Positions 18,292 to 49,022 of a stretch of 64,000 nt of DNA are shown here, piece after piece. The position numbers were made by a program, and so were the translations under genes. Each line of letters starts with the position of its first letter. Position 1 is the first letter of the stretch. The DNA comes from Balanoglossus misakiensis (lineage: Eukaryota; Animalia; Hemichordata): assembly GCA_040954595.2 (NCBI GenBank), contig CM082580.2, positions 7,914,390 through 7,978,389 on the forward strand, in the 5' to 3' direction. The notes under the pieces are model-generated. The model did no database searches. It saw nothing but the letters and a program-made list of their open reading frames with translations, and was not told where the DNA came from.

Positions 18292-18344
<53 letters not shown>

Positions 18345-19529: not shown

Positions 19530-19830
19530 TTAAAGTTTGCACCACGCTTCTCTCCTAGTAACAAGTGCCATGGAGATTTCACTCAGTCGACTACAACCTG
19601 AAACAAAGGAGAACAGTATTGATCAGATCTAGTCTCTGTGTAACGGTCATAGGGCCTATCTGCCTCAAGTTCTCCCATGGGTGACGTCATTCTTTGAGAT
19701 GCAATATAAAGTCGAAGCATGTTTTGTTGATACATGTGATATGTGGAGACAAACACTGACCTGTTAAAGCCATGGCTCGGCTTAACTCATCCTTCAGAAT
19801 CATAAGAACTTCCTTCACCCCTTCTTCTCC
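19530..19830 (-). pseudogene. Orphan last two exons of a hydroxyacid oxidase/glycolate oxidase (HAO-like) gene
   Basis: Exon 19830-19761 (70 nt, cag|...|gtcagt) encodes GEEGVKEVLMILKDELSRAMALTG. Exon 19597-19530 encodes CSRLSEISMALVTRREAWCKL*, ending in PTS1-like CKL. This resembles the HAO1 C-terminus ([25 protein letters not shown]...SKI). No upstream HAO exons were recognised in the window. Confidence 0.7.
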
Positions 19831-27000: not shown

Positions 27001-30000
27001 AAAATGAAAAATCTAGAAGAGATTCCAATGACAAGAAAATTATTTAATTTACAGTTTGTGTATACACATCCTTAAAAAAAGTTTAAGATTTGTTTCCCAG
27101 ACAAGATTATAATTGTCCAAAATCTAACAAACCTGAATTTCTTTTTTTTGTCCAGTGTGAAAATACTAACCTACATATCCAGGATAGCAAAAACATGTAG
27201 TCCCAGTACACACACCATGAACACAGCTTTCACACAACTTTTTTATATCTTCACACTCGTCGCCATCGTAATCATCGGGACAGAAACAATAATTTCCACC
27301 ATCGTCAGAACGCGCACACAATCCTTCATTGTGACAGGTGTTCGTCGGACATGTACTTGATGCATCTGTGACAAAAACAAAAGGGTGGTTTTATCAATAA
27401 AATTATTGAGCTTTGAGTGAATGTTTAAATATTACCCTCAGACCTTTTATTTCTTTGTTGGTACCAAACGACCTGGCACCCTTAATACCAGGAAGTGAGT
27501 AGTACCCATATACATATAGTGGACTTCCCTTTTATGTCAATAAAAAGATAATTGCCCATGAAAAAATTCAATTGGATTTGTGTCAACAAACTTTTGGCTG
27601 AATTTCTGCTATAATGGCTTAGACATACAGTACCGGTATATGGAAAAAGCAATCCCTAAATGTACATCCATGACAAATCAAAGTACAGATACAAATTCAT
27701 GCACTAATGTGGCACAGTGCCTTTGATCATTTAGAATGACTGCAGACACATGCACATGCAGGTTTCAAAGAATGACTGACCACTGAGCGACTGACTCACT
27801 TATTCACTCGCTCACTACTCACTCACTGACTCACTTATACACTGCGGTGATATTCCACTCCATATTCCAGTACTGGTGCATGTCCTGGAAATTTCACCAA
27901 GCATGACGTAACCATCACCACAGTCCACTGTGAGTGTTGCTCTATCCCAAACTTTATACGGGCCAGGCTCTCTGGGGTATGTAACATTAGTGGCATCTCC
28001 TAGGTCTGTTATAGCTTCGCAAGTCACTTCTGTAATCCACAGAGAAAAGGACATTGTTCATTGTAAAATAGTGAAATCTGTGGTCAAATATATAAAAGCT
28101 GTATTTGTGAAGAGAAAAATCACAGTTCATTGGGGTTTGGGAGGGGCAATTATTTCCCCATTCATTACATGTTAGAGAAGTCTATAGAAGTCCAACTTTT
28201 CCATGGAAAACAATGGATGTGGACCAAACCATGGTGGTGAAAGGGTTAAGGGACTTATTTTCGACATTTTCTTTTTTTTAAATGAGACTGTATTCCAATC
28301 TTGTCACTGTTCATCTCAATTTAATACCTTCGCACACTGGCAGATCTCCATACCAATAGACAGTTCCGTTGTCGTGAAGCAGGCACACCATGGCTGGACC
28401 TGTGGTCAATCTGTGGTTCCCGTAACAACGAAAGTGACAGGAATCCCCAACTGTTCTCTTACATGTACCATTTCCAGTGTGGTCAGAAAAGTGGATCCCA
28501 TCCACATGGTAGCTCTCAGCATAGGGTACATACGGTAGAGGACTACAGGTTGCAACTATAAAGGGTACAAAATGTCAAAAATTAAAAAGTCACACATTTC
28601 GCAATTTTTCTTCAACCTATTTCAATTTTCATGTTCCTGTTCTTAGAGACACCTTGGAATTCAAACCAGCTCTATGAATGTTGACTAAATATTTGATAAA
28701 AACAGCCAAGGTTTATTTTGCATATTCTAAGCTTAGCTTGTCTGTGAGGGTCTCAGTGCTGCAGGTAATCATATTCATGTATCTAACTTGACAATTCCGA
28801 CTGTATTGTTTCCGTACCTGTACATCCTGATCCGGGAACTATTTCCGAGTAACCCGGCTGACACACACAATCACTCAGATCTGTGGCACCGACATCCCTC
28901 GTGGTCCTGAAAGAAGGACAACTGATGCACTTGCCTGGCTCTGGGTCATTCCTATAGGTCCCTAGGGGGCACGCTGAAATTTAAAAGAACAAAGATATGC
29001 ATTTTTATTATCTTGAAGTAGTGATCAAAGCCCGCAAACAGATTTGTCAATTAATGTACAAAATAATCTACAGTGTACATATTTTTGTACAGTGATATGC
29101 GAGGTAAAAATCACCAGAAAAGCTGTATGTGCATGGCTGGATTTGGCATTGTTAACATTTTAGTGTACGTAGACAACTACATGTACTTTGTGGATTTTCA
29201 ATGGGTATTTCAAAAATCCTCTTCCTATTGTGTGCGATTGCATTGTCACTGTCACTAATAGGTGTCTGACTGACGCCACACCCAATTTTATGTGATTGAA
29301 AATATTGCTATCCCTTCTTATAGTAAAGAGACTTAAGTTCCCTTTCATCACCATGGTTCAGTCCAAACCCTTTGTTTTCAATGGTAAGGTCGGACCTCTA
29401 AAGTGAAAACTGGGGATGAAAGGGTTAAAGGGACAAAGTCTCTTTTGATATTTTGGGGTGTTTTTTTTTAGTTTCATTTTATGTTAATTCTCTCTGAAAC
29501 ATGATACATGTAAATGACTTAATTAGTTTTTCCAATTCAACTTACACCTTTGTACATGGGTATAACACAAATATAATCTACATGTATGCTATAATTTTTG
29601 GTATAGACCAAAAATTAAATAATGGAACCTGTATTTCAGCAAAATAATTTTAATAACCAACTTTTCCTATTCTCACTACCGGTCATTTAAAAAAGATGCC
29701 GGCTGCTAGAAACTTTGGAATATTTTTAAGTCTGCAAAAAATTCTAGCCTCACCTTCACAAGATGCCCCGTTGCCATGGAAACCTGCATCGCAAACGCAA
29801 TGATATCTACCAGTGTCTAACCCACAGAGACAGACAGCATGGCTGCTACAAGTAGAAGGACACATGTCCATCTCTGCTTGCGTCCAATTTTTATCTTCTA
29901 CAGCTGTAGGGGGGTTGGAAGTAATTAAATTAAACCAATTTCACTTCTGTTTTAGTTCAGTCCCAGGCAAAGGAATTGTGTTGTGCCGATAATCTGATAT

Positions 30001-30715
30001 ATTTATGACCCGACCCTTATCAGCCAAGTGGAAAGAAACCTATACCCATCTCTGCTTGCGTCCAATTTTTATCTTCTACAGCTGTAGGGGGGTTGGAAGT
30101 AATTAAATTAAACCAATTTCACTTCTGTTTTAGTTCAGTCCCAGGCAAAGGAATTGTGTTGTGCCGATAATCTGATATATTTATGACCCGACCCTTATCA
30201 GCCAAGTGGAAAGAAACCTATACCCATCTCTGCTTACGTCCAATTTTTATCTTCTACAGCTGTAGGGGGGTTGGAAGTAATTAAATTAAACCAATTTCAC
30301 TTCTGTTTTAGTTCAGTCCCAGGCAAAGGAATTGTGTTGTGCCGATAATCTGATATATTTATGACCCGACCCTTATCAGCCAAGTGGAAAGAAACCTATA
30401 CCCACTCCATTTTTGAAATACAGCCTCAACAGAAACAATAATGCATATAATCACGGTGGGTGAAACCTCTCCTTAATAACACCAATGCCTTCAATAAATT
30501 GGAACGAAAAAAAAACAATTTCTGACTTACTTTGGAATTCACATAAGGAATATTTTGGCGCATTGCATCCTGTATCATCTAGCTTGTATCCAGTAGTGTC
30601 TCCAAGATACCTATAAAAAGTGGCATTACTGTTTGTATATCTTTCATGAGAAATGAAAGCCTGTTAAGTGACTATACAAACATGTGCATACATACATACA
30701 TACATACATACATAC

Positions 30716-30746
<31 letters not shown>

Positions 30747-32241
30747 CATACATACATACATACAGACAGACAGACATACATACATACATACATACATACA
30801 TACAGACAGACAGACAGACATACATACATACATACAGACAGACAGACAGACAGACATACATACATACATACATACATACATACATACATACATACATTAC
30901 ATGTAAGAATATGTTTCAAAATATAAAACATACCACAATTGCAAACAGTCTCCAGAGTCATTGGGCTCACCATTTCCCCAGAGACCACTTTCTACTGACA
31001 GCTGGTGATTATCATGAGTTCTCCATACACCTGAACTGTCTTTATATCCATTAATCCAAATATCTTGAGGAGTCAAACTATATTTCTCTATTTCTTCCTG
31101 GGCTTCATTCAATGACTCCCCATCTACAATCTTGGCAAGGATTTTCCCTTGCTGTAGACAGGCATCCACTGCCTCCTCCCACGGTAACTTTTCTGCGATT
31201 ATCTGAAACCGCCCTTAATTAAATGAAGGCAGAAATCTAAGTGTTAAGGTAGTACACGCCCCAAAAATCGAAATCTTAAACTCTGTCTCATTTTTTGTCC
31301 AAACTTTAGATGATTCTCTTTTTACAATTGAAAATAAAAACAGGGGGTTTTGTGCAAAATTTTGACTGGGAGAGCAAAATTACCTCAAACTTGCAATTCA
31401 AAATGGCCGCCATTCTGTGTGTAAAGTATATTTCAATTGAAATGTACTGATAAAAATCAGGTACAATGTATGTGTAACATATCGTGCGCATGCATCTTTA
31501 ATCAAGTTTATAGATTTCAGTTTCAACTTTCAACCTACCCCGTGTAAATCTCACGGCCAGCTGCTTGAACTTGGCAAAGGAGTCTAAATACATCGCATAG
31601 CTGGAGTCAGACACCACGGACAACAACTCGTCTTGGTCTGCATCCTGAAGACCAAGAGCAAAGATGTGCACAGGTGAGCTGGCATTCCACCCCAGCGACA
31701 TCAGTTCCCTGTTGGCGACTTTTGGGGGCTCCCCGATGTTGGATTTCCCATTGGTAATCAGGAAGACCACTTTCTTGGAGTCCTGGCGGCAGTTGAACAA
31801 GACGTTCCTGGCTTCCCGCAACGCGTCGGTGGTCGCCGTCCAACCGAACGTATCCCTCGATATCGCGTCGATGCGTGAGAATAGCTCGCATTTGTCCAGG
31901 TCGCCCGAACCTCCGCCATCGGGGATCGAATTGAAATCGACCGTGGGTCGCGTGCTGTAGGTTAGGACGGCCGCCCTCGTCCAATCTTGGTCGATTTTGA
32001 AGGGCGTCAGTAGGTTTTTTATGAAGGCGAAAATGGTGTCCATGGCAACTGGGTGCGACCTCAGACTTTGCGACCGTTCAACCACAAACACGACGTCAAC
32101 TTTTTCTTGGGAAGCAGAGAGAAACCCATCACGAATTACGTCCACTGCATCATCGACTTCAGTTGCTACATTGTAACAAGGGAGGGTCCCGATGATCACG
32201 ACAATTAAACCAAGACAGTTGAAATATGTCACGAAATACAT
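21043..32241 (-). CDS. SVEP1/polydom-like multidomain type-I membrane receptor (signal peptide, VWA, C-type lectin, EGF, ephrin-receptor-like Cys repeat, 2 sushi, EGFs, pentraxin/LamG, EGF array, SEA, Cys repeat, TM, Tyr-rich tail)
   Basis: Exons: 32241-31539 signal+VWA ([23 protein letters not shown]); ~31214-30933 and ~30610-30531 CTL; 29903-29754 EGF-like; ~28974-28818 CPLGTY..CISCP; ~28555-28328 and ~28029-27836 sushi; ~27366-27257, ~26933-26819, ~26491-26357 EGF; ~26221-26019, ~25644-25458, ~24985-24725 pentraxin ([24 protein letters not shown]; [12 protein letters not shown]); ~24226-23366 EGF array; ~23257-23100 and ~23007-22822 SEA-like; ~22365-22207 Cys repeat; ~21767-21043 TM ([29 protein letters not shown]) and tail. 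An alternative in-frame ATG lies at 32340. Confidence 0.85.
22563..22653. mobile_element. ~90 bp MITE, piggyBac-like termini (copy 1)
   Basis: caccctttcacc ... ggtgaaagggttaa terminal inverted repeats, with an internal ccatggtt..ccattgttttc..aaggtnggacct shared with three other copies. Confidence 0.65.
24362..24454. mobile_element. ~90 bp MITE (copy 2, reverse orientation, diverged)
   Basis: ttacccctttcacccc..ggtcccactttaccatagaaaacaatgg..gtgatagggttga. Confidence 0.55.
28172..28249. mobile_element. ~90 bp MITE (copy 3, reverse orientation, partial)
   Basis: gtccaacttttccatggaaaacaatggatgtggaccaaaccatggtggtgaaagggttaa. Confidence 0.6.
29336..29428. mobile_element. ~90 bp MITE (copy 4)
   Basis: ccctttcatcaccatggttcagtccaaaccctttgttttcaatggtaaggtcggacct..ggggatgaaagggttaa. 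Confidence 0.65.
29868..30404. repeat. Tandem repeat, 178 bp x3, including a splice acceptor and the first 36 nt of an exon
   Basis: The unit ccatctctgcttgcgtcc...gaaagaaacctatac starts at 29868, 30046 and 30224 and is nearly identical in all three. Confidence 0.93.
30686..30896. repeat. Compound (CATA)n/(CAGA)n microsatellite
   Basis: Direct read; lies in the intron that splits the CTL domain. Confidence 0.95.
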
Positions 32242-33474
32242 ACCGATAGTTGACGTCAAGAAACGAGATGTTTCTCCCAAGCCGCCAAGTTGAAACCCTC
32301 CTTCAGTGTCGAGTAAAAGGTAGCGATCAACCGCACCCATACATTCAGGAAAGTTATAACGCGGAAATGCGGTGGTAAAAACGTACGGAAATTAATGCAG
32401 TTAACGCGCGTGAACTGAGAAAATAATCACGCAGTATTTCAAATCAGCGACAACGTCGCGTTCCTATATCTACAGTTTGGCACAAATTACTTCCGTTTTT
32501 TAGCTTGATTGCGCCTGTTTGCAGGAATAAAGAACAAAAGCCAGTCCCGGGATAGCAGCCTGTTGCTTTCGGTAAAGCCGCGATCTGCGTCATGGCAAGG
32601 TCGGGTCAAAATTTGCAAAATAAAAAGAGGGATGAAAACTTTCGAGGTTAATATTGTGATTGGCTACCATAGTTCGGGGTCATGCGAGGTAACCCAGACA
32701 TACATGGACTGACCGGGTTATATAATGTTAATAATCAGTTTCCATAAACTCAACTCATAGCTAACAAAGTAAATGGGAAAGACATAAAATATTGAAAACT
32801 TTCTATCGAAGTTACAGTAAAGTGAGACAGACTCCGTAAACATTTACCTCAAGTGAACCAGGAAGTCACCTCGGAATTGGGTCAAGTAATAGTACGCATT
32901 GTTGTATTTCATTGTGTGGGTGTGACCACAGTGTACCAGCTATAGTGTCGTGACTAGCTGAAATAGTCTTGGTGGGATGGATCGTACGACTTGCCCTATC
33001 CGCACGAAACATCGCACACGCCGCAAGATCCAGTACAGAGCAAGATACTTTACGTACAGCAACTTTAAGATTTATGCTTGAATATCAATATTTATTATTA
33101 CCCACTCTAGATAGTTTAATTACAACAGTAGTGTCAGTTATTTATAAACACACTGATACGAAGATGCTCATCATTTCCTAATTGACAACATCGTTTCAAT
33201 CATCAAATTTGCTAGAAAGAGTCTCGGCACACAGTGGTCGCACTTCTTGGAGGCTTATCTTTGAATATGTAGGTATATGATAAATGTAAAATATCACCGA
33301 GCGTTTAATAACTCAATTATATAGATGGTCTCATCAGTTTGAACAGTCACATTATGTCGAATTACCGCAATATATATTTCGCCATATAATACGTAGGCTG
33401 TAATTTGTTTCTATTCAGGCGTGATTATATACGGCACCAGATAGACCTCGATGTCTTCGGGTTGCATTTTTGTT

Positions 33475-36400
33475 TCATTCTGAGTTCGGGAACAGGTTCA
33501 TCAGAATCTGCTTTTCGCCGACGAACAGGAAGTCTCTCGCCGACTTCAATCTTCCGCTGACGATATCGAAGTAAAACTTCGTCTGCCTCTTCAGGAACGA
33601 AGAGGAGATGACGACATCGAACTCCTTAGCACACCGGGTCAAAACTTTGCACGTCTGCCCCGGGTTGACCACATCAACCCTCAGGATGACGTCGGACATT
33701 GTCTCGTTGTCGTAATCAGCGATTTCGAAATCGTGGACGTCTGGGACCTCCCTCTCGGCGTTGACTATTGCCTTGTCGAAGGTCACCCTCACGGTGATGT
33801 TGCCCTTTTCGGCGTTCCCGCCAGTCAGCAGTGAAGTCGCGTCCGACACGTGCGCAGTATATGTTGGTACCAAGTACACGTGATATTCGGTACTTGTCTG
33901 ACCACCAAGTTTGTTTTCGTCCTCACTGACGATCTGTGAAGTCAAGATTGCACGCATTAATATTTGCACAGAACACGTACCAAAAATACTATAAAATTAG
34001 TCAAAAATTGCAGATAGCAAACATAAAGGCGATAGACGATGACGTAATAATAAAAGTTTAATAATAAAAAGTGTGTGTGTTTGTGAACAAGGTCTATGGA
34101 ACACCTAACCCCCTCGGGTAGACGAGCATGATCATGAGATGATGATAGATCAATCGCGTATTATTTCCATATGTTAAGAATGCAAGATGTATAGTTTGCA
34201 TCGCGCGAGCGGCCGGCGGAGCTAACCTGGCCAGACATCTCCAATATCAGTACATCCCCGTCTTGTAATCTCTCCTGGAAATATATGCCCAACCGATATT
34301 CCGTCAGGTCTCGCCCAAGGAACAGGAATCGTTGTTTCGTCGGTTTCAAGATGGTGACGTTGCCCCTTCTGAGAGTCACGATGAAATCGCTGCTGATGAC
34401 GTCATGACCGTCATACCCAGGTAGAAGTGTGATGGTTGATACCTGAAAATAACCAGAAAATAACCAGAAATTGGTGTGACATCACAGTATGAACGACACA
34501 GGGCCGCCATGTGAGAAGACAGAAGGAACCGACCTCATCGGCGACTGTGTCCGGTATCTGTTGTTTTCGCCTTATTGGCCTGGTAAAGAACACGTTGGCA
34601 ACCACGCTCATTTTGTCCTCCTGAACTTGAAAATCCACCCTCGACAGTCCCGCTAGAACGGGCACATTGAATTCCGGAATGAGGCTTCGGACGTCGGCTA
34701 GAGTAATATTCCAGGTGAAAGCGTTCTCCTGGCAGTCGTCGAGAAGATGGCTTGTCGCTCGTATGTTTTTGCCTTCTGTGCAAACTTGGAAAGGCCATAT
34801 TCCGCGGCATGTTTTCTCCGGCCCTGCAATGAAATTAAACTTGGTCTTGTTTATCCCAAACAAGAACACAAATAAATGAATAAAAAATGAATATACGAAT
34901 ACATATACAATATATAACACCATACAGACAGACAGACAGACACTCACCTTTTGCATTGATGGACAAATAACGCGGGAGGTTTTGCATCAGCAACGTTTCT
35001 TGAAATCGGTTAGCCTCTTGAATCATCAGAATGTCGCCAAGCTTAACGACCATTCCATTGGGTTTGTGGTCATTGACAACACGGAATCTCAGCAATCCCG
35101 ATGTGTCCGCCTTGCTCACGTCGAAAGAAGCGCTTTTGTAGTCATCCTCGCCCTCGTCGCGATTCACCGCGCCGGTCGCCGACGCTAACATGAAGTGATC
35201 GCCGTAATGGAGTTCCTCTCTCTGAACGTTCACGATGGACAACGGAGAGACGATCGCAAACAACTTATTCTGTTCACCTGTCATTGAATAAAACAGGAAA
35301 GCGTTTGCAAAGCAGGTGACACATTTCAAGTAGATGCTTGTTTGGTTTAATACAAACCTACTGAGATATTAACGTTTACTCTAAGCTTAATCGACAGAGA
35401 GAATACTTAGCGTGCAAATTGTCCTGTGTGCCCCCAAAAATATGATTCAGAAACAAACTTGCCATAAAACCTTTACTGAACGATCGCTTAGATGGACAGA
35501 TGGTTTGCAGAAAGCTAAACAACAAACTCAACCAAGCGATGACCGGATTAATTGATATGAATATTAACATGCAAATTATGATACAACCCAGAATGCAATG
35601 CGATGTGTCCGCACATTCCTAACTATACAGAATCACTTCTCGTGAAGTTCAGCATGAAGTTCGACCATTTGCACTCGCTGATCCTGTCCAATAATAATCA
35701 ATTCCTATACACGTGGAATTGGTCCCAACTTTATTGAAATATACTCACTGCTCACGACGCGATACTGCACCCTGAAACTCTTCAACTTCAAATCGTCCCA
35801 AACGTTGCCGAAGTGTTCCTTGTCGAGTTCATGGTAGCAAGACCAGTGATATGTGAAGTCGTACAGTTTACTTTTTGTCTTCTTCCAAAACCACACTCCC
35901 TAAACGTGATAGTCACATGATATCAATAAATTACGAGAAATGTATCGGACACTGTACGAAATTATATACCTTTTAGCCAAGCTTTACGTTTATAAAAGCC
36001 AGACAGTGAACACCATGTTTTTTTTTCTTTGATTTAAAAGCGACTTGGAGGACTATCATATTTTAACCACTGTTACATACCGTGGTCACGTCATGATAAG
36101 CCGGAATTTCAACTCGCTCTGGCGAAGTGAAGATGATGCAAAAACCGCCCTCATGCGCCGTGAACGTTCCGGCTTGACAGCCTGTCGTCTGCTTGCAGTG
36201 ATCTTCACAATCCTCTTCGGATAGGCCTGCAATAAAAACGGCATGCAGTCGCACATTTCTGTGTCATTAACAAATTACAACATGTATGTCGCATTCAGTG
36301 AAGTTTGGCGTTGAAGTTCAGTGGCGTCAAGTTTCTTATTTCAGGGTTTGAGAATTGCGGTGTACAAATTCGTGTTCCGGCGACTTCTCGGTCGAGCCTA

Positions 36401-39400
36401 CAGCCTCTACTCGAAGTTACGTATACCGTACTCATGACTAAAACGAGGATAGTTAACTACAATTTTATAGCACCTGTAGACAAAGCCGTGTAAAGCCTCT
36501 CTCTAAACTAACCCTGCTTTTCTGAGAAGTGCCCATGTTTCACAAATCAGAAGCCGTGTCCATTAATCTGAAAACCGGGAATGTCACCTCCAGATATAGG
36601 ACACATACCTGTATACGTCACACACTTCGAGGATATAGTGTTGTGTACTTGCTTCATGAATTTCACCCATTCGTTCCCGTTGGGATTGCTTGGCCCACTA
36701 GATTTCTGTTGGACCCACGTACACAGTTGATTTGGTAATGGTATAATCGACGCCTTTGAAGTCGACGAGCCTAGCAAATCAGATAGCAGAAACGAAAGAC
36801 GATCGGCGTTAAACACAAATATGAATGCCATGTTTAAAGTATCCGTACTGTAGCCAAACTAGAATGCCGTCTTAAAAATAGCAATCTTGCACGTGCGCAC
36901 AGGACGATGAGGTTCACACTATACCACAGAAATACAACTTGTGAATCATTGGGCAGATTTCAAAGAAGTCGTTTCAGTTCGACTTAGACTTTTTACCGAT
37001 TGTCGACATCCGCTCTTGGCCATGTGCGTTTGGAACTTGAATAAGTATCGAATTCACAACTACGTGGGCAATCATGAATCACCTATGACACTGGCTGTGT
37101 CTGTATAGTACAGATAAATCATCTGTGATTTAGACAAAGACACGGAATTTCTCGTTTCAGTCAAGTATGCAGACAGGAACATATACATGTACCTTTAAAA
37201 TCCGCGGCTGCCGCGTAGATTCCATCTGTTTCATCTCTGAGAAAAAACACCTTTTCGTTACAGTCTCTCATCGTAATATGGACGATATCCCCAACATGCA
37301 CGGCGTTGCCGTCTTCGTCTTGGCCGCGTTGACTGAAATCTGTGCAACGTGCGTCTGGTATGCGATTGCAGTAACCTTGGTATTTGGCTCGCAATATCTG
37401 TCGGACAAATTTGAGGGAGGTTTTAAAGAAGGTGACGATTAAGGGGGTTGGGTTCATATGTATGAATTGTGAAAGAGATGAGAGGGAGGGAGTGACAAGG
37501 GAGGATAGAGAAAGTGATTTTCTGCTATAAAGCAGCGAGCTTACACCCTGTTTTGTTTCAATCTTCTTGTCACTCGGGAAGTTCTCTGGCGTCAGCAGAT
37601 CCACCACAGCCGCCAGACTGTACTTGATCGGAACGGGATTGTTGAAGACTGTGCTGGCCCACTCCTTCATCGAATCGGTGCTCCCTTCTTTGATTTCGCC
37701 GACGCCGGCCTCGCCTCCAAGGAAGAACTCGGTACTCGACTGGTCCGACTGAGACAGCGAGTTTTTCATGGAGTTTGATATCTTGCTCTTCATACTTTCT
37801 TTGACCTTAAATATGCCTGAAAAGGAAAATGGGAATAATTATGTCAGTGCTGGGTTTATACACCCTATATGCCTGTCAACATTAATTGAATGCGTCACAT
37901 TTTTCTCTATTCTGAAAGCAAAATATTTGTTGACGTTTAGGAACGTTTTTATAGGAAATCACCCAGCGCTCCTAGATAATAAATGATTCACCCCTCACCA
38001 GTCACCCCTGCTGACACCTCAAACGAAGAACTGAGTTCATTTTCCTGAATCTTCTCCATGGATTGACTCGTCATCTGATATCTCTGGGTGGCTTTCCCGC
38101 CCATGAGAACCCTGGTGGCGTAGTGCGTCCCGAAGGCGCCGATGAAGTCGTCGTAGAAACCGCAGTCGGAATGGCATCGGACGCTGTACGTGCAGCACGC
38201 TATGGCCGGCAGGTTTTTCACGGCCTCTCGGAACTCGTCGCTAGCGTCCGCGTTGAAGGGGGCCAGGCGGGCGTCGTAGACGATCACTCTACCGACGACG
38301 TCGACGTACACGTTCTGCATGTTGACGGTCGTCTGCGTCATCGTGTGGTACGAGGTGCTGGCGCTGAAGCCGCCGGTGATCTCCTCAATGGTGCCGCTGA
38401 CTTCCACGCTGACGTCCAACTCCAGGGAATTCTTGTAGCTCCTCTCGGACGTTATGATGGACGTCGTCGAGCCGAAGCTGCTCCCCATCTCGCGTATGAC
38501 GTCAGCCTGGTCGGGCATGAGGAACATCCGGTCCGACGAGAACCTGACCTTGTCGTAAGTCAACCCGATCACAGCCTGCCGAAATCCAGGGTCCACCGAG
38601 CCATCGTCGTTTCGCGGGTTACCATAGAAGATGTCGTATCCTCGTCCCAGGTAGCCGATATTCGGAAATGAGGTTTTGCCATCGGCTGGCACCTCTAGCC
38701 TGTTTTTCGCCGCAGATTGACGAGCCCTCACTTCAAGAAGTTCAGCTTTGGCCAGCTGCTCCGGTATCGACATGTTGGCACGAAGAGTCTGAAGGAAAGT
38801 AATGGTGAAATCAATAGCTGTGTTTGTGGTTTAAATAAGACGATAAAGGGTTTAAGAACAACAGGTGAACGCGTTGGTAAATATCGCAGCACATAACATG
38901 AAATAGTGCTGTGATCAACTGTGATGCGAGAACAAAAAGCTTCGCCTTTTCTTTATAATACCTGGTATTCGAACTGGATCTCTCTTTCGGCGATATCCTG
39001 TTTGGCGGCGATGAGGTCGGCCCTGGCCTGGACATCCGGCAAGGTGAGGTTCAGTTGTCGGTCGATCCGCGTCCGTTGGCTGTAGATCTGACCCTGGCGC
39101 AGAAGCTGCAGCGACTGCCAAACGTTGCAATCTGCAGTGAGAAGTGAACGGTGTTGCTTGTTTTAAGGCAGTAATTCGCCTCGAAAATCAGAGTTAAGGC
39201 GTCAACATAATACAAAATCATGAATGAAAGAGCACATACACACATAACCTCGAACTCTCACCATCCTGCACGATATCAGGTGAGAGACTGTTGTACCCAT
39301 GGATAGATGGTTCACACACACCACGGACGCTCATTGTCGTAAGACATACCTGAGTAATCTTGACACGCTTCACTTGACGCCGGCTCGGGGGAAGATTGAC

Positions 39401-39963
39401 AATAACTGTCTCCGACACGCGATCCGTTGCTGGCCACACAGAATACAGACCTGGATAAAGAGTGGAAACTTTTGATCAAAACACCGGATCTGTGTTTCAA
39501 TGGACACTACGGATTTTTGGGGTTAATCTATTGGTAGAAGTCTTTTCCCTATATACATGATTTACACATCAGAGGCGGCCATGATTTAGGAAAAATGTAC
39601 ACAGCAAGGCGAATCCGGTATAATTTGCCGCATTCGAAAATCTTGATACTATCAATAGGACATATTTTACAAACGGAAATATATGTCTGTATATACACCG
39701 ATAATTTTCGTTGGTACTACTAGTACGTCACGAACGATGATGACGAGAGACATCATGCATGACGTCAGTATGTCTCACCTTGAAAGGAAGCCCCCACCAC
39801 AATTACCAGAACACTTGCTCCAGTCGTTGTAATCCCAATAATAAGTACATTCACTGTAATCCGAACACCTGCAAAATGCAAAGGTAGATTTTTATGCAAT
39901 CTTCGCCGACACAGTTTGCACTCAAAAATGCGTTCCGCATACACCCGCTAAGCAACAAGTTTG

Positions 39964-40049
<86 letters not shown>

Positions 40050-43000
40050 TAAACTAAAAGAAAATCGATCCAACTAACCGTAAATATGGTGTTTCTCTAT
40101 CTGGCTTATCGAAGCTGCAGTAGTACTCGGGAACTGCTTGTTGGCTCTCTTTGTTCACACAGACCAGCTCAGTCAGGATGTGTCCCGCTCCGCATTTGTG
40201 GGACCCTTCACAGACTGCCCCAGGGCGGGGGCGATATTTCCATTGGAAACAGCTACGGGGAAGAAAGGGAATACATTTTAAAATTGAAGCTTTTTGGACA
40301 AGTGAGATTAACTGCTGCGTGGTCTCTTGTCGAAAAATTTATAAGCTCGCGGGCACAGTATTTTTTCAACGTCATCACCACAGTATACACAGTTTATTTT
40401 TTTTTATTTTTTTATTTATTTATTTATTAAGTTCCCCATTGCTTGAAACCTGAACATAACGCCCTGGAAATATTTGCATAAAATCAGAGTGGGTGGGTCA
40501 GCTCGGAGAACCTCACGACGGACACATACCTGGCGATGTAGTGATACACGCAAGATTGGTTCGTGTGCGGGCGCAATTTGTAGCGGCAGAATTTCTCATC
40601 TGTGGGCAGGTTCGTCAAAGCTTGGACACACTTCACGCGTCGTGTTTGTATTCCCCCGATGCAACCGGCTGAATCACAGGCACTCCAAGGCCCGACCGAC
40701 CACTTGAATACTGTAAAGGGACACATATGAACGATACAGTCACAATCGCAACATTTCTCCTGCGTCACGTCGGCTACCATTGCCGTGGTGGCGAGGCCAA
40801 TGGGAGAAAAGTTGACCAATCACACCAAGGGTGCTTCTCCAAAGGCCTCGTTTTGAGTGCAAATTTATGATGACACGCACTTTCTTAGTTCCACTTACAT
40901 TTTATTTGAAGACTCAACTTCGGTCTCAGGCTCGATTGTTTCCACACGATGATGTCATCAAAGCCAGCTTGTTGTTGATCTTTGAGCGGGCGCAGCATGA
41001 AACCATTGCGGCCGGCGATGAACTTGCCGTTCAACAGCCCCTGACCAACGAAGAAATAAGAAAAAGTTACAGCTAATGCAGGTTCATTGGGGAAAAATCA
41101 CACTGTACACAGCTGTATCGATTGACGCCCGACCAATATAAACCAAAGTCTAAACAGATCGTACTTGCCAATATATTGTCAGAGCTCTTCATTCATGCAA
41201 GAAAAGCCACGCATTTACCTCAAGCAATGTCGTCAGTGAATCAGATCGGATGGAGACACTTTGGTGACTGGTTGTATTCGTATCGATGGTATCAATCAAA
41301 ACACTCCGTGGAATACTGGTGTTGGACGAGGATATCCTGGTCCAAGGGTCTATTACACCTTCCAGCGCCAAGTACCGTATGTCTCTCTCTCCCTTGAAGT
41401 TCAGATCCATAACAGCACTTTCCACGATGACGGACATGTCCTCCAAGTTCCTGCTCCTGAGGCTGTTTATTCTGAAATTCAGCAGCGCCACGCATTCGGT
41501 GTTTGCAAAGATGTCGTTGTTAGATTTGCAGTCGGACGATTTTGCAGTGGCTGAAAAGTGCATATAACGTGGTTACATCGTCAGTTGCTGAAGCCTTACA
41601 GACTAAGCTTCATTAGTGAACAGAATCATAAGAACACGAGGCATAATTCACACCAATGCAGTTCCAACAACCGCCAGCCCCTCAAAACATGGGTATTTGG
41701 CGACGTTAGACATTGAGGCAAGACTTACACTGGGTTTCACATATGAAATATTTCATGTCATTGCATGCTGTATCGTCTAGCTTGTGTCCAATCGTGTCTC
41801 CGCGATACCTGTCGAGCAAAAGTGGAGATAATTTTTCTTTAGTTTCCATACATACTTAATATAACATAAAACATACCACAGCTGCAAATACCATAAAAAC
41901 ATACCACAGCTGCAAACATTTTCCAGAGTTATCCGGCTGGCCCTCAGCCCACAGACCGCCCTCCAGTGACAGAGGCAGATTATCCTGAGCTTTCCACACT
42001 CCGAAGTTGTCTCTGTAGCCGTTAACCCAAAAGTCCTGTGGGGTCAAACCGTGTCTCTTTATTTCCTCCTCCACTTCATTGAGAGTCTCATCGTCCAACA
42101 CCTTGACGAGGATTCTACCCTGGGCTAGGCACGCGTCCGCTGCACCTTGCCAAGATTTGGATTCGGTGGTTATCAGGAAACGCCCTTCTTCTTCTGAATC
42201 AGAAAAAGCCCAGAAAACAATAATGCGTCTCAAATCACATTCCTTCCTTCACTGTGTCCATGTGAAGTGTTCATCAGCTCCCGTCACTGCATGCTGCATG
42301 CGGTCGTTTTGAGAGCAGACAATTGATTGCATTTGGTTATTTATTAAGGCACAATACCTGTAAAAATTGAAACATCTACGAGGCTTACAATTTGTCCAAT
42401 AGTGACTAGCGCCCTCTGCAGTACTCACCATCAGCGTCGCGCTTCCTGCGTCTGTAGGGATCCTCTCTCTCCCCGATCTCCACAAAATATGGCGGCCAGT
42501 TGTCTGCACTCGGTATTCCGATCGAAACCAACTGTGGCGTCAAGGGGCACCAGCCGAAGAAGGCCTCGTTGTAGGCCGTGGAGTAGGCCATGGTTGTGCA
42601 GGCAAATCCGTGGTAGTCGGAAAAGATCGTTGTGGTGGCTGAAATGAAGGTACGGCAAATGGAGTTGCAGGTTCAGTGTTGTCAATCAGGATTTCAAATT
42701 ATGTATTTTTCCGTGACACAGGGTCTTGTAAATACAATGTATGCTAACTTTGGATTGACAATTCTACAGTGTTGTAAAAGCAAAGAGGAAACGCAACAGT
42801 ATGCACGCCTCACATTTTGCTGACGTATGCGACAACACCACGTGACCCAAATGATGGACGACACAGATTCAGAGATATCTGAAAATCTTGACAACTACAT
42901 AGAATATCCCGATCGTTTTAACATTCCTCCCGGGTCCGGGACTAGCAAGACGCGGTTGTTAATACACAATAGAAAAAAAAACGATGAACATTTGTAAAAT

Positions 43001-43747
43001 TTACATGTCTATGCCAATCAATGTCTTGAACTTACGTACCTGGCGTGATAAGACGCGTATTGGACACTGTCCCGCCGAGGAATCCTTTTCTCTGGCATTC
43101 CGTCACCCCTTCCATCTTGTTGATGTAAGACTCTCCACACCAGTCACACGTGAATGTAGTAATCACACTGTCCAGTTGGATTTCAACCTAAAGAGGAAAC
43201 GCCATATTCTTTGGGATGTGCAAAAGGTGTCTTCGTCGATCTCCTAATTCGGCCAACCTGACTGAACTGAGATATTCTATCAGTTTCGTGACTGTGACTG
43301 TCGAGTAACTCCCAATTCGCATAGTTCATAACCTGGAATAAATCTGCAATTGGGAATGTACCCCCGGTACTTCACCAAATTTTATAAAACTTCTCTCATA
43401 TGTTGATCTCAGAAAGATGTGACAACTGCTGTGGAACAGGCAGGTCATTATGGCGTTCCTTACCGTTTCTACAGTAACCCCATTACCGATCTGCCCGACC
43501 AGCTTCAACGCTGTAACGAAGCCCACGTTTCTGTTTATGACGTAGAATTGCCGGTTGCCTGGTTTGATAAACAAGTTTATCGGAGTCGTGTCGTTCAGCG
43601 TCCCGACAATCATGAACGCTATGTGTAACCCATCGGTTGGTCCCTCCGTCATGTATACGTTTATACTGTAGTTTTTGTAAGCTGAAAAATAAAATAATGT
43701 CGTGAAGTTTGAATGTACATACATACATACATACATACATACATACA

Positions 43748-43779
<32 letters not shown>

Positions 43780-46700
43780 CATACATACACACATACATAC
43801 ATTCATTCATACATACATACATACATACATACATACACACATACATACATACATACATACATACATACATACATACATACATACATACATACATACATAC
43901 ATACATACATACATACATACATACATACATACATACATACATACATACATACATACATACATACATACACACATACATACATACATACATACATACATAC
44001 ATACATACATACATACATACATACATACATACATACATACATACATACATACATACATACATACATACATACATACATACATACATACATACATACTTCA
44101 ATGTCATGTGCAGTATGAAGATTACCTAAATTCCGAAAAACCATGAAATTTTGCAATCCCACGTCTCGCCATATTTCGCCCGGGTTTCTTGGGTCCGACT
44201 CCGCCCAGCATCCCCATGTAAGGATGTAGTTGCCATCATCAATGTTCTGGTCCAAGTATTTGGCCCATTCGTCATTTTTCTGGAGGACGATTGGCGTGTT
44301 CATGTCTGTGTACAGTGTACACAGTCTCACATCTGTTTCGTTGTCGTTCTTGTTGTAGCCGTGTGTGGAATATGTATAGGCTTCGCATCCACTGCAAGAT
44401 GAAGAAATATACACGAACACTGTACACAAACAAATCAAAACACGCCCCAACAAAAGAAACACATAAAAACAAATAAAAAGTGTCCAGTAACCTTACATTT
44501 GATGGCTATTTTAATGACCCTTACAATATGGCCGACATAATCATCACGTTAGCGCACACTTTTACCTTTTCAGGCATTCTTGGTAACATACATCGGCATC
44601 CATATTGTAAATATTGTCGACCAATGACTGGGCATCGCGGCCGACGGCATGTGCGCATGCGTATGTCCAACCAACGAATGATTGCGGCTGGATGTACTTT
44701 CCTGACGGATCCAGGTCATCTTTCTTCTGGAAAGCGCATGTGCATATCTCGCCGTTTATGAGTGGGACGCGGTTGTAGATTTGAGTTTGGTCATCGGCAA
44801 CTGCAAGTAAAACGTTAGCCAATATAAAAAAATGAGGGACGCATAGAAACAATCGAAAAGTAACATGTCATGACTTACATCACAGACTTGAACCACGCCT
44901 GCCAATTTTTTTCTACTTTTTCGGAGACGAAAAAATCGGATTCATAAACCAGCACAGCCACAGGTGAAAATGTCAACGTGGAATACTTACCACACGATTC
45001 GCTGGCGGATAGAACCATGCCATCCGGACAGGCTATTTTGAGGAAATAAAAACAAAGGAATTGCGCTTAGGGTGTTGAGAGGAACAAGCGCGAAGGTTAT
45101 GGAATATGCGACCACATTCATCACATCAGTAATGTACGGGGTGACACGGGACGTTCAGTGTGGGCAGTCAACTTCGCAAAGAGAAGGGATGCAACTGCCC
45201 CTAAAGCAGTTAAAACTATTAGTGTATCCAGATTCGTTCAGCTGACAGTCATAGACTCTTGTTCGTGATTTAGAGTCAAAAACACTCGCTCCAGCCAACA
45301 CTCACGCTTTGGGCACGCAGGGCGCGGTTCGCCTATGTTGCACGTTTCTGGGACCAACGCGTTGTCGGGGATCGTATAGCACCAAGCAGAACTCTGGTAT
45401 CCGAATGGGTTCCGACAATAACTTCCAAGACCAAACAGCGACATCAGGTAGCCCGGCCACGCTTCGCACTGTTTACCGCTTATGGTCGTGGAAACCCTTC
45501 CACGGTAATCTGACCCGTCCGTTTGAGTGTAACACTCCACAGTATCTGCAGAACAAGACAATGTATTTGAGATTTGTATATGTTTGATTTGACGATACTT
45601 ATAACATGATGACTTCGCAATCGCCACAAACATTAAATCGACCCACCTTCCAATTCCGGTAACATTATGGTCTGTTCCAGCGACCAGCTGCCGATTCCGA
45701 GCTTGTTCCTGGCAGCCACCCTGAACTTGTAGATCTTGAAGGGCTCCAAGCCACCGAGAGTGACGGCGTTTCCCTCGAACTTGGCATCAGCGAACGTGGA
45801 CCAGCGACTGAGATGTCCGAAGGTCAGGTTCTGGACGATGTATCCCGTGATCTGGTTGCCGTTGACCGAGTCTTCGGGAGGACTGGACCATTTGATCGCC
45901 ACTGTGTCGCCGAGGATTGAGCCGATTTCTACATCGACGGGGGCATTGGGTGTGCCTGGATAAAATTGAAATGCAAGTTGTCGAACGCGGTATTAACAAA
46001 AAGCACCGAGGAGCTACCCCATCGTGCATGCGTCTCTTACAAAATGCAATATGATACGCAATTTTTGCACAGTCATTGCATCAATTCAACAATATTTTTT
46101 TTACGAAATGTATTAACTAATATTAATTGTGTTGCTATGAAACTCAGGAACAGAGACCCCTTCTATGGGATTTGAGCACTCTAGCTCACCCCAGAACAAA
46201 ACTTGGGGGAGTGACCCTATAGGCCTCGCTTTGAGCTCAAATTCATGGCGGCTGCGTGAGGGCGCTAGACTTTGAATGAAGCGGGTGTGTCCTCAGACGG
46301 CCAGGGTCTCATTTTAGAACGGCACTCACCGGGCACTTTCACGGCGTTTGTCGGCACTCCCTTGCGGCTGCGGCCGCTGCTGTGTATCCCGGTGATTCGG
46401 AACTTATAGAAGCCGTTGTTCTGCGGAGGATACTCGAACGTCATGAAGGTCTCGTTGGCGGCCGACGTCGTCTTCAGTTCGCGCCATTGGTCGTAGCGCG
46501 ACGTTGCCCGGTCGGCGAACTTGTACTCCAGTCTGAAATGTACTATCGGGTCTGAGCTGAACCACACGAGTTGCCAAGAGAGATGTAGTTTGTCAGAGTC
46601 GACAATCACTTGAGGTGGCGGGAAAGGTTCGCCGTCTTCTAACGTCTTTGTCCGCGAAGTCACTGAAAAAGACGGCACTATCGTCATGGTGGACATTTTC

Positions 46701-48670
46701 TTGGATTTATGGCCGTTGTTCTTTATTATAACCTAGTACGGTGGCTTTAACTCTCTTGTTTTTCTCTCTTGAAAATGATGCTTTTTTACCTAGAATTTAT
46801 GAGCTATACACAATTTTAGACACGGTTTTCAACGGGAACATTCTAGGAAGAACTCACTCCGCGTTTTGTATATATTTCACTTCTGCTGTCCAAATAAAGC
46901 TTTGGTGTTTGTCCTAAGTGTACTGAACCCACCGAGACCTTTTGCGTATGATAGATGCGGTACGTTCCACGGCGGTTGTGATTCATGAGTAATTGAAAAT
47001 TCCCGTCCAGACTGTGACGGTTCAGCACGTGCATCTGTCTATCGTCGACTGTCCTGGTGTTTATCCTTCGGTTATTGAATGAGAAGGATAAACTAAACAC
47101 ACACAAAAAATACATCTATAACACACACCAATTTACAGCTGGTGATTGTCAAGACGGCTGTGGTTGCTAGAAAGAACTGAAAACAAGAAAGCCGAGAAAA
47201 GGCGAGATAAATTCGTATCGGATCGAGAAAACGCGAGAGTCGCCGTACTTTGGGTAGCTGTAACGTGATTGGTCAGTTGATCATCTGCATACAATTTTGG
47301 TACATGCGTGTTGACTATTACTATTCAAGATTCTTTTGGATCAGTGAAAGCCAACAATCGACATTAAAAACTGAATTTGCTAAAAAAAATGACCACAAGG
47401 TAAACCTGCGTCCCCTGAATAATGTGATATTTTGCTCACCGATGGGTATTCACGAACATATTATTCACATGTGATTGTGGCTCTACAATTAAATATGGCC
47501 AAGTTAAATAATAAAAGGGTGTCACACCTGTTTATTCAACTGCCCATTGCAAGAGTTTTCAACTATCGCGGTATGCAAACATGGGTGTTAGAATCTCCAC
47601 AAATTCGAAATGGTGTCGTCTGTCGACTAACGATAAGGAGAAAATTGGAGCTTGGATTTCATTGATTAACTTTATGCTAAAAATGGCAGCTATTGGCCCT
47701 TTAACGCTCAGAACCTCGCGATGGAGACTCACCCAGTGGTTGGCATCGCCCACCCTCCTGCAAGTCTTCTGTCTTACACAGACATTCACCGTCACCATAG
47801 ATACCGTCGTCGCATGGCTGAAATCCGCAATCGCACACTAATGCCAAGAGAAGAATGAGTCAAAGTTAGGTAATATGTAAAGATTTCATTGCCAGAGGCT
47901 CATGTTGGCGCAAGATTTCTCCAATAACATGAAGGAAGAAAATTCGAATGCCTCTTCCCCCATTGCAGAATCTATTTTGCTTGAACAGTATAAAGTTTGT
48001 TCCATTCCGGCCTATGGTAATTAGCATGCGAGTTATGGTAGCAAAGAGGATTAAACCAACTTTGGTAGAAAACTGTTTCGTTTGAATTTACCTGTGCGCC
48101 TATTTTCGGCCAAACAGGTGAAAGCTATTGCATCGAGGTTGAATTACTACAAGTAAAAATATCTTCAAAATATTTCATCACTGTGGTGGTTATTTAACAT
48201 GTAATTGCAACTTACGCTTTCCTTATACAGAACAACTGAAAGCTTTTCCCGTCTATCTTTCGCATTAAATTTAATTAGCTGAAAATGATGTATTTTCCAA
48301 AACCGACACCTACCGTAACGCACCTGCGTTGTGTGTGCACAGTGTACCTGTGCCGTTCGAAAGGCTATACCGGAGAGCCAGTACGATCCTTACCGTTTTC
48401 ACACTTGAGTCCGTAGCGGTTCGGGGGACATTCTCCACACGGCTGGTGTTCGTAGTTGGTGCAGCTTTTGCAGTGGTCAAACAGAGAGCACCCGTACTGT
48501 CGGACGGTAGCGCTGCTGTCGAGGGTGTAGTACACGCCGTCGGCACAGAGACACGTCAGCGGGCCGTAAGAATCGCCGTACCCGGCGTTCACCTGCGCGT
48601 GGCGATGCTGCAGGGCGGCGACGCAGATCACCACGGCGACCAGACGAGAAGTCCGCGGAATCACCATCAT
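33475..48670 (-). CDS. Giant secreted mosaic MACPF/perforin-like protein (~30 exons, ~2,300 aa)
   Basis: Splice phases were followed by eye and stay consistent from ATG 48670 (signal peptide MMVIPRTSRLVAVVICVAAL) to TGA 33475. Exons: 48670-48394 and 47837-47733 (EGF-like), 46662-46330 and 45955-45647 (FN3), 45545-45306 (kringle CYTQTDGSDYRG..YCRNP..AWCYT), 45032-44991, ~44800-44565 and ~44391-44125 (PAN-like), ~43681-43464 and ~43186-43040 (PLAT-like), ~42638-42429 (RRRKR), ~42194-41904 and ~41808-41730 (CTL), ~41550-41218 and ~41040-40898 (DNRLRE-like), ~40710-40530, ~40252-40079, ~39868-39779, ~39450-39349 (TSP1), ~39131-38961, ~38788-37998 and ~37816-37545 (MACPF: YLGRGYDIFYGNP..DPGF; FGTHYATRVLMGGK; WASTVFNNPVPIKY), then ~37397-37192, ~36770-36608, ~36225-36080 (PAN), ~35899-35748, ~35277-34948, ~34823-34534, ~34442-34227, ~33933-33475. 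Confidence 0.85.
37545..38788 (-). other. MACPF domain exons of the mosaic gene
   Basis: The MACPF signature (Y/F)GTHY-x6-GG is present as FGTHYATRVLMGG. Ser/Thr/Gly-rich amphipathic segments typical of TMH1/TMH2 are present (LELDVSVEVSGTIEEITGGFSASTSY; SSFEVSAGVTGIFKVKES). Confidence 0.92.
39964..40048. repeat. (CTAA)n microsatellite
   Basis: Direct read. Confidence 0.95.
43716..44096. repeat. Long (CATA)n microsatellite (~380 bp) filling most of an intron
   Basis: Direct read. Confidence 0.96.
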
Positions 48671-49022
48671 GGCCACCTTGGTTTCCCTGGGTCCCAGGGC
48701 CGAGTGTGTGCAGCAAGACAGAAGACACCCTCGAAACCGAAATGGAAAGCCTCTCACCCCTTTCCTGATATATGTTTGTTTATGCAATTATTTATCTGAG
48801 GAGGACGGGTCCTGACAAACAATTCTAGACAACATCATCGTCTGCATCATTTAACATTATGGCCGGCCATCTCGGTTTCCCGGGTTCCAGTGAGTGTGTG
48901 CAGTAAAAAAATTTCCCTTCGAAACCGAAATGGAAAGCCTCTCACCCCTTTCCTGATATATGTTTGTTTATGCAATTATTTATCGGAGGAGGACGGGTCC
49001 TGACAAACACTTCTAGCCAACA
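48671..49022 (-). promoter_or_regulatory. Tandemly duplicated (period 188 bp) promoter/5'UTR segment of the MACPF gene
   Basis: Near-identical block cgaaaccgaaatggaaagcctctcacccctttcctgatatatgtttgtttatgcaattatttatc..gaggaggacgggtcctgacaaaca at ~48732-48821 and ~48920-49009. Each copy carries GAAACCGAAA and a minus-strand CATATATC TATA-like element. Confidence 0.7.

Follow-up and report, generated by a model that had tools for sequence, protein, structure and literature searches.

A long predicted secreted MACPF protein of acorn worms, with pore-former marks and a core apparently shared with Capsaspora

We analysed a stretch of 64,000 nucleotides from the hemichordate Balanoglossus misakiensis (assembly GCA_040954595.2, contig CM082580.2, positions 7,914,390 to 7,978,389; hereafter the window, numbered from its first letter), and in it a minus-strand gene at 48670-33475, for which an original prediction, made from the letters alone, had proposed a mosaic perforin-like protein combining recognition, activation and lysis in one chain. 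The gene opens with an ATG at 48670, its stop codon ends at 33475 on the minus strand, and its 30 exons join into a single open frame of 6,963 nt that encodes 2,320 residues and one terminal stop, i.e. a predicted product of about 260 kDa. From its sequence, the locus is likely to hold an intact gene from a family conserved in acorn worms, with a product predicted to be secreted. The exons are as follows.

Exons 1-10, minus strand: 48670-48394, 47837-47733, 46662-46330, 45955-45647, 45545-45306, 45032-44991, 44800-44566, 44391-44126, 43681-43464, 43187-43040
Exons 11-20, minus strand: 42638-42429, 42193-41905, 41808-41729, 41550-41219, 41040-40899, 40710-40530, 40252-40079, 39868-39779, 39450-39350, 39131-38962
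Exons 21-30, minus strand: 38788-37999, 37816-37545, 37397-37193, 36770-36609, 36226-36081, 35899-35749, 35277-34948, 34823-34534, 34442-34227, 33933-33475

The splice sites were chosen by hand for continuity of the frame, and the independent control of the model is therefore homology. The sites are regular: all 29 introns are GT-AG, with phases 1, 0 and 2 in 17, 7 and 5 of them, every acceptor is YAG (29/29, against a background of 0.47 over 825 AG), and G occupies donor position +5 in 24 of the 29 (background 0.32 over 1,086 GT). The GC content is 0.52 in the coding sequence and 0.39 in the introns. All 30 exons align to four full-length RefSeq relatives from acorn worms, the exception being exon 6 in Saccoglossus, and the two RefSeq models that make up the direct P. 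flava orthologue span 27 exons, every one of which aligns at 49-87% with few gaps; one Glandiceps isoform shows deletions in exons 27-28 when aligned to the model. The anticipated phase-consistent frame of about 30 exons was thus rebuilt with homology behind it. The expectation of a secreted protein free of transmembrane helices also held, since the signal peptide is the only strongly hydrophobic stretch and a 19-residue hydropathy scan peaks at 1.29 beyond it. A fusion with the downstream gene, which carries a vWA domain, was considered and rejected, because the stop of exon 30 coincides with the C-termini of the relatives and the vWA frame starts with a hydrophobic leader of its own. A direct duplication of about 120-130 nt, with two nearly identical copies (48705-48830 and 48880-49015), was spotted by eye immediately before the start codon.

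The N-terminal half of the predicted protein contains the following elements.

48593..48670, minus strand: predicted signal peptide, residues 1 to about 26 (sole strongly hydrophobic stretch; relatives also start hydrophobic)
47733..48592, minus strand: Cys-rich EGF-like N-terminal region, exons 1-2 (Cys pattern; 61-83% identity to the P. flava orthologue)
45647..46662, minus strand: two FN3 domains, exons 3-4 (Pfam fn3 E 0.016 and 1e-9; fold matches to FN3 tandems, Z 12-14)
45306..45545, minus strand: kringle, exon 5 (Pfam E 5e-12; 16 residues shorter than in four relatives)
44126..45032, minus strand: Cys-rich linker and N-terminal PAN-like domain, exons 6-8 (PAN_1 in relatives; internal homology)
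42454..43681, minus strand: conserved beta-rich region with no assigned fold, exons 9-11 (43-56% identity in four relatives)
42439..42453, minus strand: basic motif RRRKR, residues 787-791, predicted proprotein-convertase site (KR or RR at the same position in five relatives)
41729..42193, minus strand: C-type lectin domain, exons 12-13 (Pfam E 7e-5; QPD at 41931-41939)
40899..41550, minus strand: DNRLRE/CBM96-like domain, exons 14-15 (indirect, via a Capsaspora segment)
39350..40710, minus strand: three TSP1 repeats of ADAMTS type, exons 16-19 (Pfam TSP1_ADAMTS)

Pfam, run exon by exon, recovered most of the modules that had been named beforehand: both FN3 domains, in agreement with the fold search, the kringle in spite of its deletion, the C-type lectin, and all three TSP1 repeats (E 3e-12, 1e-3, and 9e-4 and 2e-3 for the two halves of the third). 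Two other names stand in part. The EGF-like assignment has as its sole basis the Cys pattern and a weak EGF_STAB1-2 match in the P. flava orthologue (E 0.019), and the DNRLRE-like domain is reached indirectly, through a Capsaspora segment that corresponds to it and matches NCBIfam DNRLRE_dom at E 1e-4, under the curated cut-off of that model; CBM96 clusters in the ESM Atlas, at 0.89, are no more than a lead for this part. The PLAT-like domain was not confirmed: neither Pfam nor family, structure or fold searches gave exons 9-11 a convincing match, their predicted strands are of low confidence, and exon 9 has zero matches at E 10 among solved structures. The N-terminal PAN has no Pfam match on the window exons; Saccoglossus and one Glandiceps relative each carry two PAN_1 stretches, and a profile of the N-terminal PAN segment recovers the C-terminal PAN described below (E 5e-5 to 1e-2), while the two PANs tested profile against profile are not significant (5/30 shuffles). 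All six acorn-worm sequences spanning this region have a basic motif ahead of the lectin.

The lectin exons (41729-42193, minus strand) resemble those of the next downstream gene (30530-31214, minus strand), with 58% protein identity, the same exon split and 69% DNA identity over 292 nt; the lectin of the P. flava orthologue reaches only 47% in protein. The neighbour's lectin has the motif EPN and that of the present gene QPD. The likeness in sequence suggests local module exchange or gene conversion between the lectins of the two genes.

The C-terminal half is built around the MACPF domain.

38696..39126, minus strand: helical arm of about 85 residues directly before MACPF, residues 1260-1345 (predicted helices; homologous stretches elsewhere)
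37362..38674, minus strand: MACPF domain, residues about 1353-1680 (Pfam, profile and fold matches)
38315-38446, minus strand: first hairpin, TMH1, 44 residues
38096-38134, minus strand: signature FGTH..GG, motif at residue 1533
37737-38065, minus strand: second hairpin, TMH2, 49 residues
37659-37718, minus strand: GG-X17-W
34680..37310, minus strand: predicted MIR-like beta-trefoil "foot", residues about 1697-2048 (fold matches over orthologue residues 458-807)
35749-36770, minus strand: C-terminal PAN, exons 24-26, inserted after the first trefoil lobe (Pfam PAN E 5e-4)
33478..34660, minus strand: two predicted Ig-like beta-sandwiches, residues about 2055-2320 (fold matches over orthologue residues 814-1075)

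The MACPF domain announced by the original prediction is borne out by Pfam (E 6e-15 on exon 21, 5e-9 on exon 22), by the signature motif and by fold, and its two exons rank among the best conserved (60-69%). The C-terminal half of the P. flava orthologue was folded from a 16-row alignment (mean predicted local distance difference test, pLDDT, 54.6) and searched against 48,161 chains with VIA-align. Orthologue residues 116-447 are MACPF by fold (TgPLP1 Z 18.4, C8alpha 17.3, MPEG1 17.0; Foldseek E 3e-16), and the predicted model has the four-stranded bent sheet and the two flanking helix clusters of the superfamily. The ESM Atlas returned generic MACPF clusters only (0.82-0.88). The helical linker that had been expected before MACPF appears as a predicted arm of about 85 residues, modelled in the orthologue as helices 21-80 and 83-107 with pLDDT under about 57, and a stretch homologous to it occurs in Capsaspora, in oyster and in one further relative. 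Coiled-coil heptads in the arm were considered and discarded, their score being reached by 441-843 of 1,000 shuffles.

What had been left as an unnamed long C-terminus is now predicted to be a beta-trefoil with a PAN insert, the latter matched by Pfam, followed by two Ig-like domains. Over orthologue residues 458-807 the fold search returned RyR2 (Z 9.8, root-mean-square deviation 3.4, 152 aligned), IP3R (9.7 and 9.1) and the MIR domains of Pmt (8.7 and 8.0); these Z values are modest, yet many independent trefoils fall on the same range. A short [VL]x[FY]GD repeat occurs three times, marking the lobes, and its copies align over just 10-13 columns (0/30 shuffles, profile against profile). The Ig-like part matches SbsC (Z 9.3, root-mean-square deviation 10.1, 161 aligned) and, sandwich by sandwich, single domains at Z 7.0-7.8; the two sandwiches compared profile against profile are not significant (9/30 shuffles), and exon 27 searched against solved structures gave matches at chance level only.

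Whether these modules belong to one chain deserves scrutiny, since RefSeq splits the direct P. flava orthologue into XP_070567032.1 (1,092 residues, 64% to model residues 1-1075) and XP_070566443.1 (1,075 residues, 70% to residues 1241-2315), with residues 1076-1240 in neither, which speaks against a single protein. The locus could hold two genes, or yield mainly two transcripts, namely a secreted N-terminal adhesin or lectin that stops near exon 15, and an independent MACPF protein. The break between the P. flava models falls exactly at the exon-15 junction, XP_070567032.1 terminating four residues past it; reading through the exon-15 donor meets a stop after four codons, and exon 15 has an AATAAA at its end (40906), with four more in intron 16 (40398-40428). 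Against this division, four RefSeq relatives cross the junction in one chain with 0-2 gap columns at exons 15-16: P. flava XP_070539755.1 (2,321 residues, a paralogue), Saccoglossus LOC100370048 (2,313), and Glandiceps LOC144434246 (2,343) and LOC144446518 (2,329). They are colinear with the model at 50-53% overall identity, and 69 of its 79 Cys are kept in all four. These relatives are gene predictions rather than sequenced proteins, drawn from three genomes; the P. flava paralogue was found in a search of 1.84 billion representatives and the Glandiceps and Saccoglossus chains in one that scored 7,972 candidates and gave seven matches, three of them vertebrate ADAMTS-like proteins matched in TSP1 only. 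Further from acorn worms, Capsaspora CAOG_06312 and the sequence P0002 each hold DNRLRE-like, TSP1, helix and MACPF within one chain. Finally, XP_070566443.1 begins partway through a TSP1 repeat and lacks a signal peptide, the MACPF half lacks a signal peptide of its own yet is Cys-rich, and introns 15-19 measure just 188-328 nt. We therefore hold a division into two genes or transcripts to be very improbable, and the claim of one chain survives the examination of the RefSeq split.

RefSeq apparently divides one P. flava gene, omitting about 165 residues of TSP1 repeats between the two models. The AATAAA hexamers, four of them in an A-rich tract of intron 16 (40398-40428) and one at 40906 on the minus strand, could allow intronic polyadenylation, and a short additional isoform, secreted and devoid of MACPF, is possible.

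The acorn-worm relatives, all labelled "uncharacterized" in their RefSeq records (P. flava, G. talaboti, S. kowalevskii), have the entire architecture of the window protein, at 50-53% identity over the full length and 64-70% for the split P. flava orthologue; the window protein differs from them in its shortened kringle and its QPD lectin, the QPD being shared only with the P. flava orthologue. By its predicted domain content, the protein is not a member of the C6-C9, perforin, MPEG1 or apextrin families. First, C6-C9 and chordate C6-like proteins are described in part of a survey (PMC11312191) as secreted, with TSP1 repeats ahead of MACPF. The window protein shares the secretion and has three such repeats, with TSP1_ADAMTS as best model, but the known components continue after MACPF with EGF-TSP1-CCP-FIMAC, whereas here an 85-residue helix precedes MACPF and a predicted trefoil follows it. 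Pfam scans of 29 window exons and five relatives found no LDLa and no EGF after MACPF, and the MACPF similarity to C6-C9 is weak (E 4e-8 to 8e-3), so the pairing of TSP1 with MACPF is probably convergent. Second, the MACPF fold and motifs are shared with perforin-1, in which EGF and C2 follow MACPF but whose C2 domain was not found in the window exons or the relatives, and with MPEG1/perforin-2, whose type I membrane anchor is absent from the window protein. Third, apextrin consists of a signal peptide, MACPF and ApeC, according to the portion of PMC9585378 drawn on here. The scan that detects ApeC in the sequence P0062 at E 1e-86 found none in the window exons or the relatives.

The original prediction had placed this MACPF nearer to apicomplexan perforin-like proteins than to C6-C9, and the searches agree. 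In a profile search of solved structures, TgPLP1 (PDB 5OUP) is the best match (E 4e-34), followed, after one more chain (9xda), by MPEG1 (5e-15), perforin (3e-8), C8beta (4e-8) and C6 (2e-6). TgPLP1 also leads by fold, narrowly (Z 18.4 against 17.3; root-mean-square deviation 3.8, 248 aligned), and has the same start motif; it differs in its identity of about 23% and in its other flanking domains. The apicomplexan proteins have C-terminal APC-beta repeats, where the region after MACPF here matches beta-trefoils.

To place the domain more broadly, a MACPF tree of 33 rows was computed under LG+C20+F+G4, with rows selected manually out of 150 well-covered domains; the trees include no sequences of C6-C9, perforin, MPEG1 or apextrin. 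The acorn-worm MACPFs form one clade (support 99/100), included in a clade of 23 rows (99/97) together with Capsaspora, oyster-type and amoebozoan rows; the support covers the clade as a whole and not its inner order. A quicker tree of 48 rows agrees with the 23-row clade (SH-aLRT 92). CAOG_06312 and Besnoitia PLP1 sit on long branches, the latter outside the clade. Ten of the 150 listed matches were looked up, and the members named among them come from Capsaspora (CAOG_03644 and CAOG_06312), from the oyster Pinctada (KAK3101541.1) and from Clydonella, an amoebozoan. A bacterial origin was considered and rejected: prokaryote genomes gave one related locus among 14 pattern matches and metagenomes 40 among 92, and none of the 41 matches beyond the MACPF core. 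The oyster-type members (P0016, which is KAK3101541.1, P0017 and P0024) keep the helix before MACPF and have a C-terminal transmembrane helix (hydropathy 2.65-3.38), a topology that is MPEG1-like though in a different clade. P0142, a MACPF protein of 1,069 residues with five C-type-lectin-like repeats after MACPF, lies outside the 23-row clade and constitutes a separate lectin-MACPF fusion.

The likeness to Capsaspora owczarzaki extends well beyond MACPF. CAOG_06312 aligns to model residues 936-1900 (E 3e-66, 24%), and segment profiles recover in it the DNRLRE-like domain, TSP1, the helix, trefoil lobe 1 and PAN, each above 200/200 local shuffles and in the same order around MACPF as in the window protein, with a basic motif upstream. 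Unlike the latter, CAOG_06312 has leucine-rich repeats (LRR) at its N-terminus in place of EGF-FN3-kringle-PAN, no C-type lectin was found in it, and its record stops before the later trefoil lobes; the segment profiles did not find these lobes or the Ig-like part, and the N-terminal part was recovered only via PAN (4/200). Another Capsaspora protein, CAOG_03644, has the later trefoil lobes and the Ig-like part in common with the window protein. In P0002, TSP1, helix and MACPF lie in one open reading frame; its DNRLRE-like segment is weak by profile (2.3 bits, 0/200 shuffles) and was not recovered by direct BLAST of exon 14. The core cassette common to acorn worms and Capsaspora is apparently older than animals or was acquired from a protist.

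Is the protein likely to form pores? The part of the review by Ni and Gilbert drawn on here (PMC5483515) gives Y/F-G-T/S-H-X7-G-G as the signature of the MACPF superfamily, and as the marks of pore-formers this motif, the tryptophan of GGXnW and hairpins of equal length; it reports that the tryptophan is absent from astrotactin, Torso-like and BRINP, that the hairpins of astrotactin differ by 30, and that a beta-rich domain behind MACPF often binds membranes. The predicted window protein has all three marks: the signature, the GGXnW tryptophan, which is present in 6/6 acorn-worm rows and 16/16 rows of the alignment, and near-equal hairpins, of 44 and 49 residues in all five full-length sequences. 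Alternating hydrophobicity was scored against 2,000 shuffles, of which 62 (TMH1) and 28 (TMH2) reach the score of the window protein, and 62-194 (TMH1) and 58-939 (TMH2) those of the four relatives.

In our preferred reading, to which we give about an even chance, this is a secreted MACPF protein, processed by a convertase, that would kill microbes by binding their surface glycans and opening a perforin-type pore. The process would involve 1) secretion of one chain that has a signal peptide but lacks transmembrane helices; 2) a cut by a host convertase at the basic motif (residues 787-791), releasing an N-piece of about 765 residues (EGF-like, two FN3, kringle, PAN), which might be a pro-part or a tether to matrix or mucus, from a chain of about 1,530 residues beginning with the C-type lectin; 3) capture of microbial glycans by the modules that sit on the 85-residue helical arm, namely the lectin, the DNRLRE/CBM96-like domain and TSP1; 4) docking of the monomer by the trefoil/PAN foot, which occupies the place of the membrane-binding domain in other MACPFs; and 5) as in the known MACPF mechanism, oligomerisation and unfurling of the hairpins of 44 and 49 residues into a beta-barrel pore. 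Cys counts are odd on either side of the basic motif (35 and 43), which would allow one linking disulfide, as a hint only. In an animal that burrows and feeds on deposits, the protein might act in mucus, in the gut or in the coelom, for defence or for the digestion of swallowed microbes. The pore core is constant while the targeting modules differ (QPD or EPN in the lectin, the shortened kringle, LRR replacing the N-piece in Capsaspora). One element of the original prediction falls away: the chain showed neither a protease nor any other catalytic domain, which leaves activation within it unsupported, the sole candidate control point being the basic site, which would need a host convertase and would split the chain.

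A number of observations weigh against this proposal. The alternation of TMH2 is not significant in three of the four relatives (692-939 of 2,000 shuffles), and that of TMH1 is borderline in one (194 of 2,000). The structure models are mediocre (mean pLDDT 54.6 for the C-terminal half and 36.8 for the N-terminal half), and in the latter the fold search yields FN3 alone, so that the PLAT-like, lectin and DNRLRE-like parts were barely probed. The window lectin carries LDD at a position where WND is typical of Ca-dependent lectins, which makes its sugar binding unsure. With one or two copies per genome and 50-70% identity, the gene has a quiet history for one engaged in an immune arms race. Lastly, a secreted invertebrate MACPF can be linked to matrix adhesion, as the relevant part of PMC9585378 records for sea-urchin apextrin.

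Several of these points would also fit a single chain that is not lytic, serving as a scaffold of matrix, mucus or adhesion or as a developmental factor, with a MACPF that merely oligomerises, as has been proposed for apextrin, Torso-like and astrotactin. FN3, TSP1 of ADAMTS type, kringle, PAN and Ig-like domains are typical of matrix and adhesion proteins, copy number is low, conservation is even along the chain, TMH2 alternation is weak in three relatives, and apextrin offers a precedent (PMC9585378, in part). We nevertheless regard a non-lytic role as unlikely, because the GGXnW tryptophan and near-equal hairpins are retained here, whereas developmental MACPFs lack these or, as astrotactin, have unequal hairpins, and because astrotactin-2 falls below the pore-formers in the fold search (Z 13.3 against 18.4). 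The target of a lytic protein could also be other than microbes: a defensive toxin of skin mucus or eggs, guided by its lectin and lytic against the animal or protist cells of predators and parasites. The joining of lectin and MACPF has the logic of the AB-type defensive toxins of invertebrates, QPD suggests galactose-type glycans, which are common on animal cells, and TgPLP1, the nearest solved MACPF, acts on host-cell membranes. Yet all four full-length relatives have EPN, the mannose/GlcNAc type, in place of the QPD of the window gene and its P. flava orthologue, and the gene expansion usual in toxin families is not apparent among the records found; a toxin of this kind thus seems to us quite improbable, and microbe-directed lysis is the reading that we retain.

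The shared cassette invites a further evolutionary proposal, which we advance tentatively and at well under an even chance. A pre-metazoan "long-arm" MACPF cassette (convertase site, DNRLRE-like domain, three TSP1, helical arm, MACPF and beta-trefoil/PAN foot) may have been inherited or taken up by the enteropneust ancestor and refitted by exon shuffling, which would have added recognition modules of animals, into a lectin-guided lytic effector in one chain. The cassette would have been present in unicellular holozoans, related to amoebozoan MACPFs, with a membrane-anchored branch in oysters. If true, this would represent a complement-independent answer, in the sister lineage of chordates, to the lectin pathway plus membrane attack complex.

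The original prediction knew of no such architecture, and the search of the literature agrees: the full-text literature, subscription papers and bioRxiv supplements aside, yielded neither a description of the architecture nor a paper about the Capsaspora proteins, and terms searched for in two supplements to the hemichordate genome paper gave 0 matches. On the predicted models, a MACPF subfamily with a long helix before the pore domain and a MIR-like beta-trefoil after it is apparently undescribed. RefSeq already lists its sequences as "uncharacterized"; the novelty lies in the family, in its anatomy and in the deep link, and the conserved acorn-worm family and the core cassette shared with Capsaspora had both been overlooked in the earlier reading. 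How invertebrate deuterostomes lyse microbes is an open question, for which this protein provides a concrete candidate effector. A survey that includes Saccoglossus (PMC11312191) restricts C6-C9-like components, in the part drawn on here, to vertebrates, amphioxus and ascidians, and perforin is given as absent outside jawed vertebrates in a passage of PMC3477005. A secreted MACPF with its pore-former marks intact has been kept in three acorn-worm families, and the evidence suggests that its pairing with TSP1 apparently arose separately from that of C6-C9.

Other features of the window are of lesser import. The downstream mosaic receptor-like gene (about 21043-32391, minus strand) combines a hydrophobic leader, vWA, C-type lectin, EGF, pentraxin/LamG, a run of EGF, a transmembrane helix and a Tyr-rich tail, and may be a pattern-recognition receptor that acts as a partner. 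Introns of the MACPF gene and of this neighbour contain long microsatellites with tetranucleotide units, ACAT and CTAA (43717-44096, 39960-40050, about 30670-30900). On the plus strand, a single open reading frame (60062-60847) starts much like a signal peptide and has a DAN cystine-knot domain at its C-terminus (E 1e-7), which makes its product a candidate for a BMP antagonist or a hormone-like protein; a tubulin, likely gamma, runs from 11579 onward. The minus strand further encodes a RETREG/FAM134-like reticulon-homology gene (10370-10654, likely also 3646-4344), a PBZ-plus-PARP-like gene (16322-19153) and an FMN-dehydrogenase fragment (about 19690-20166).

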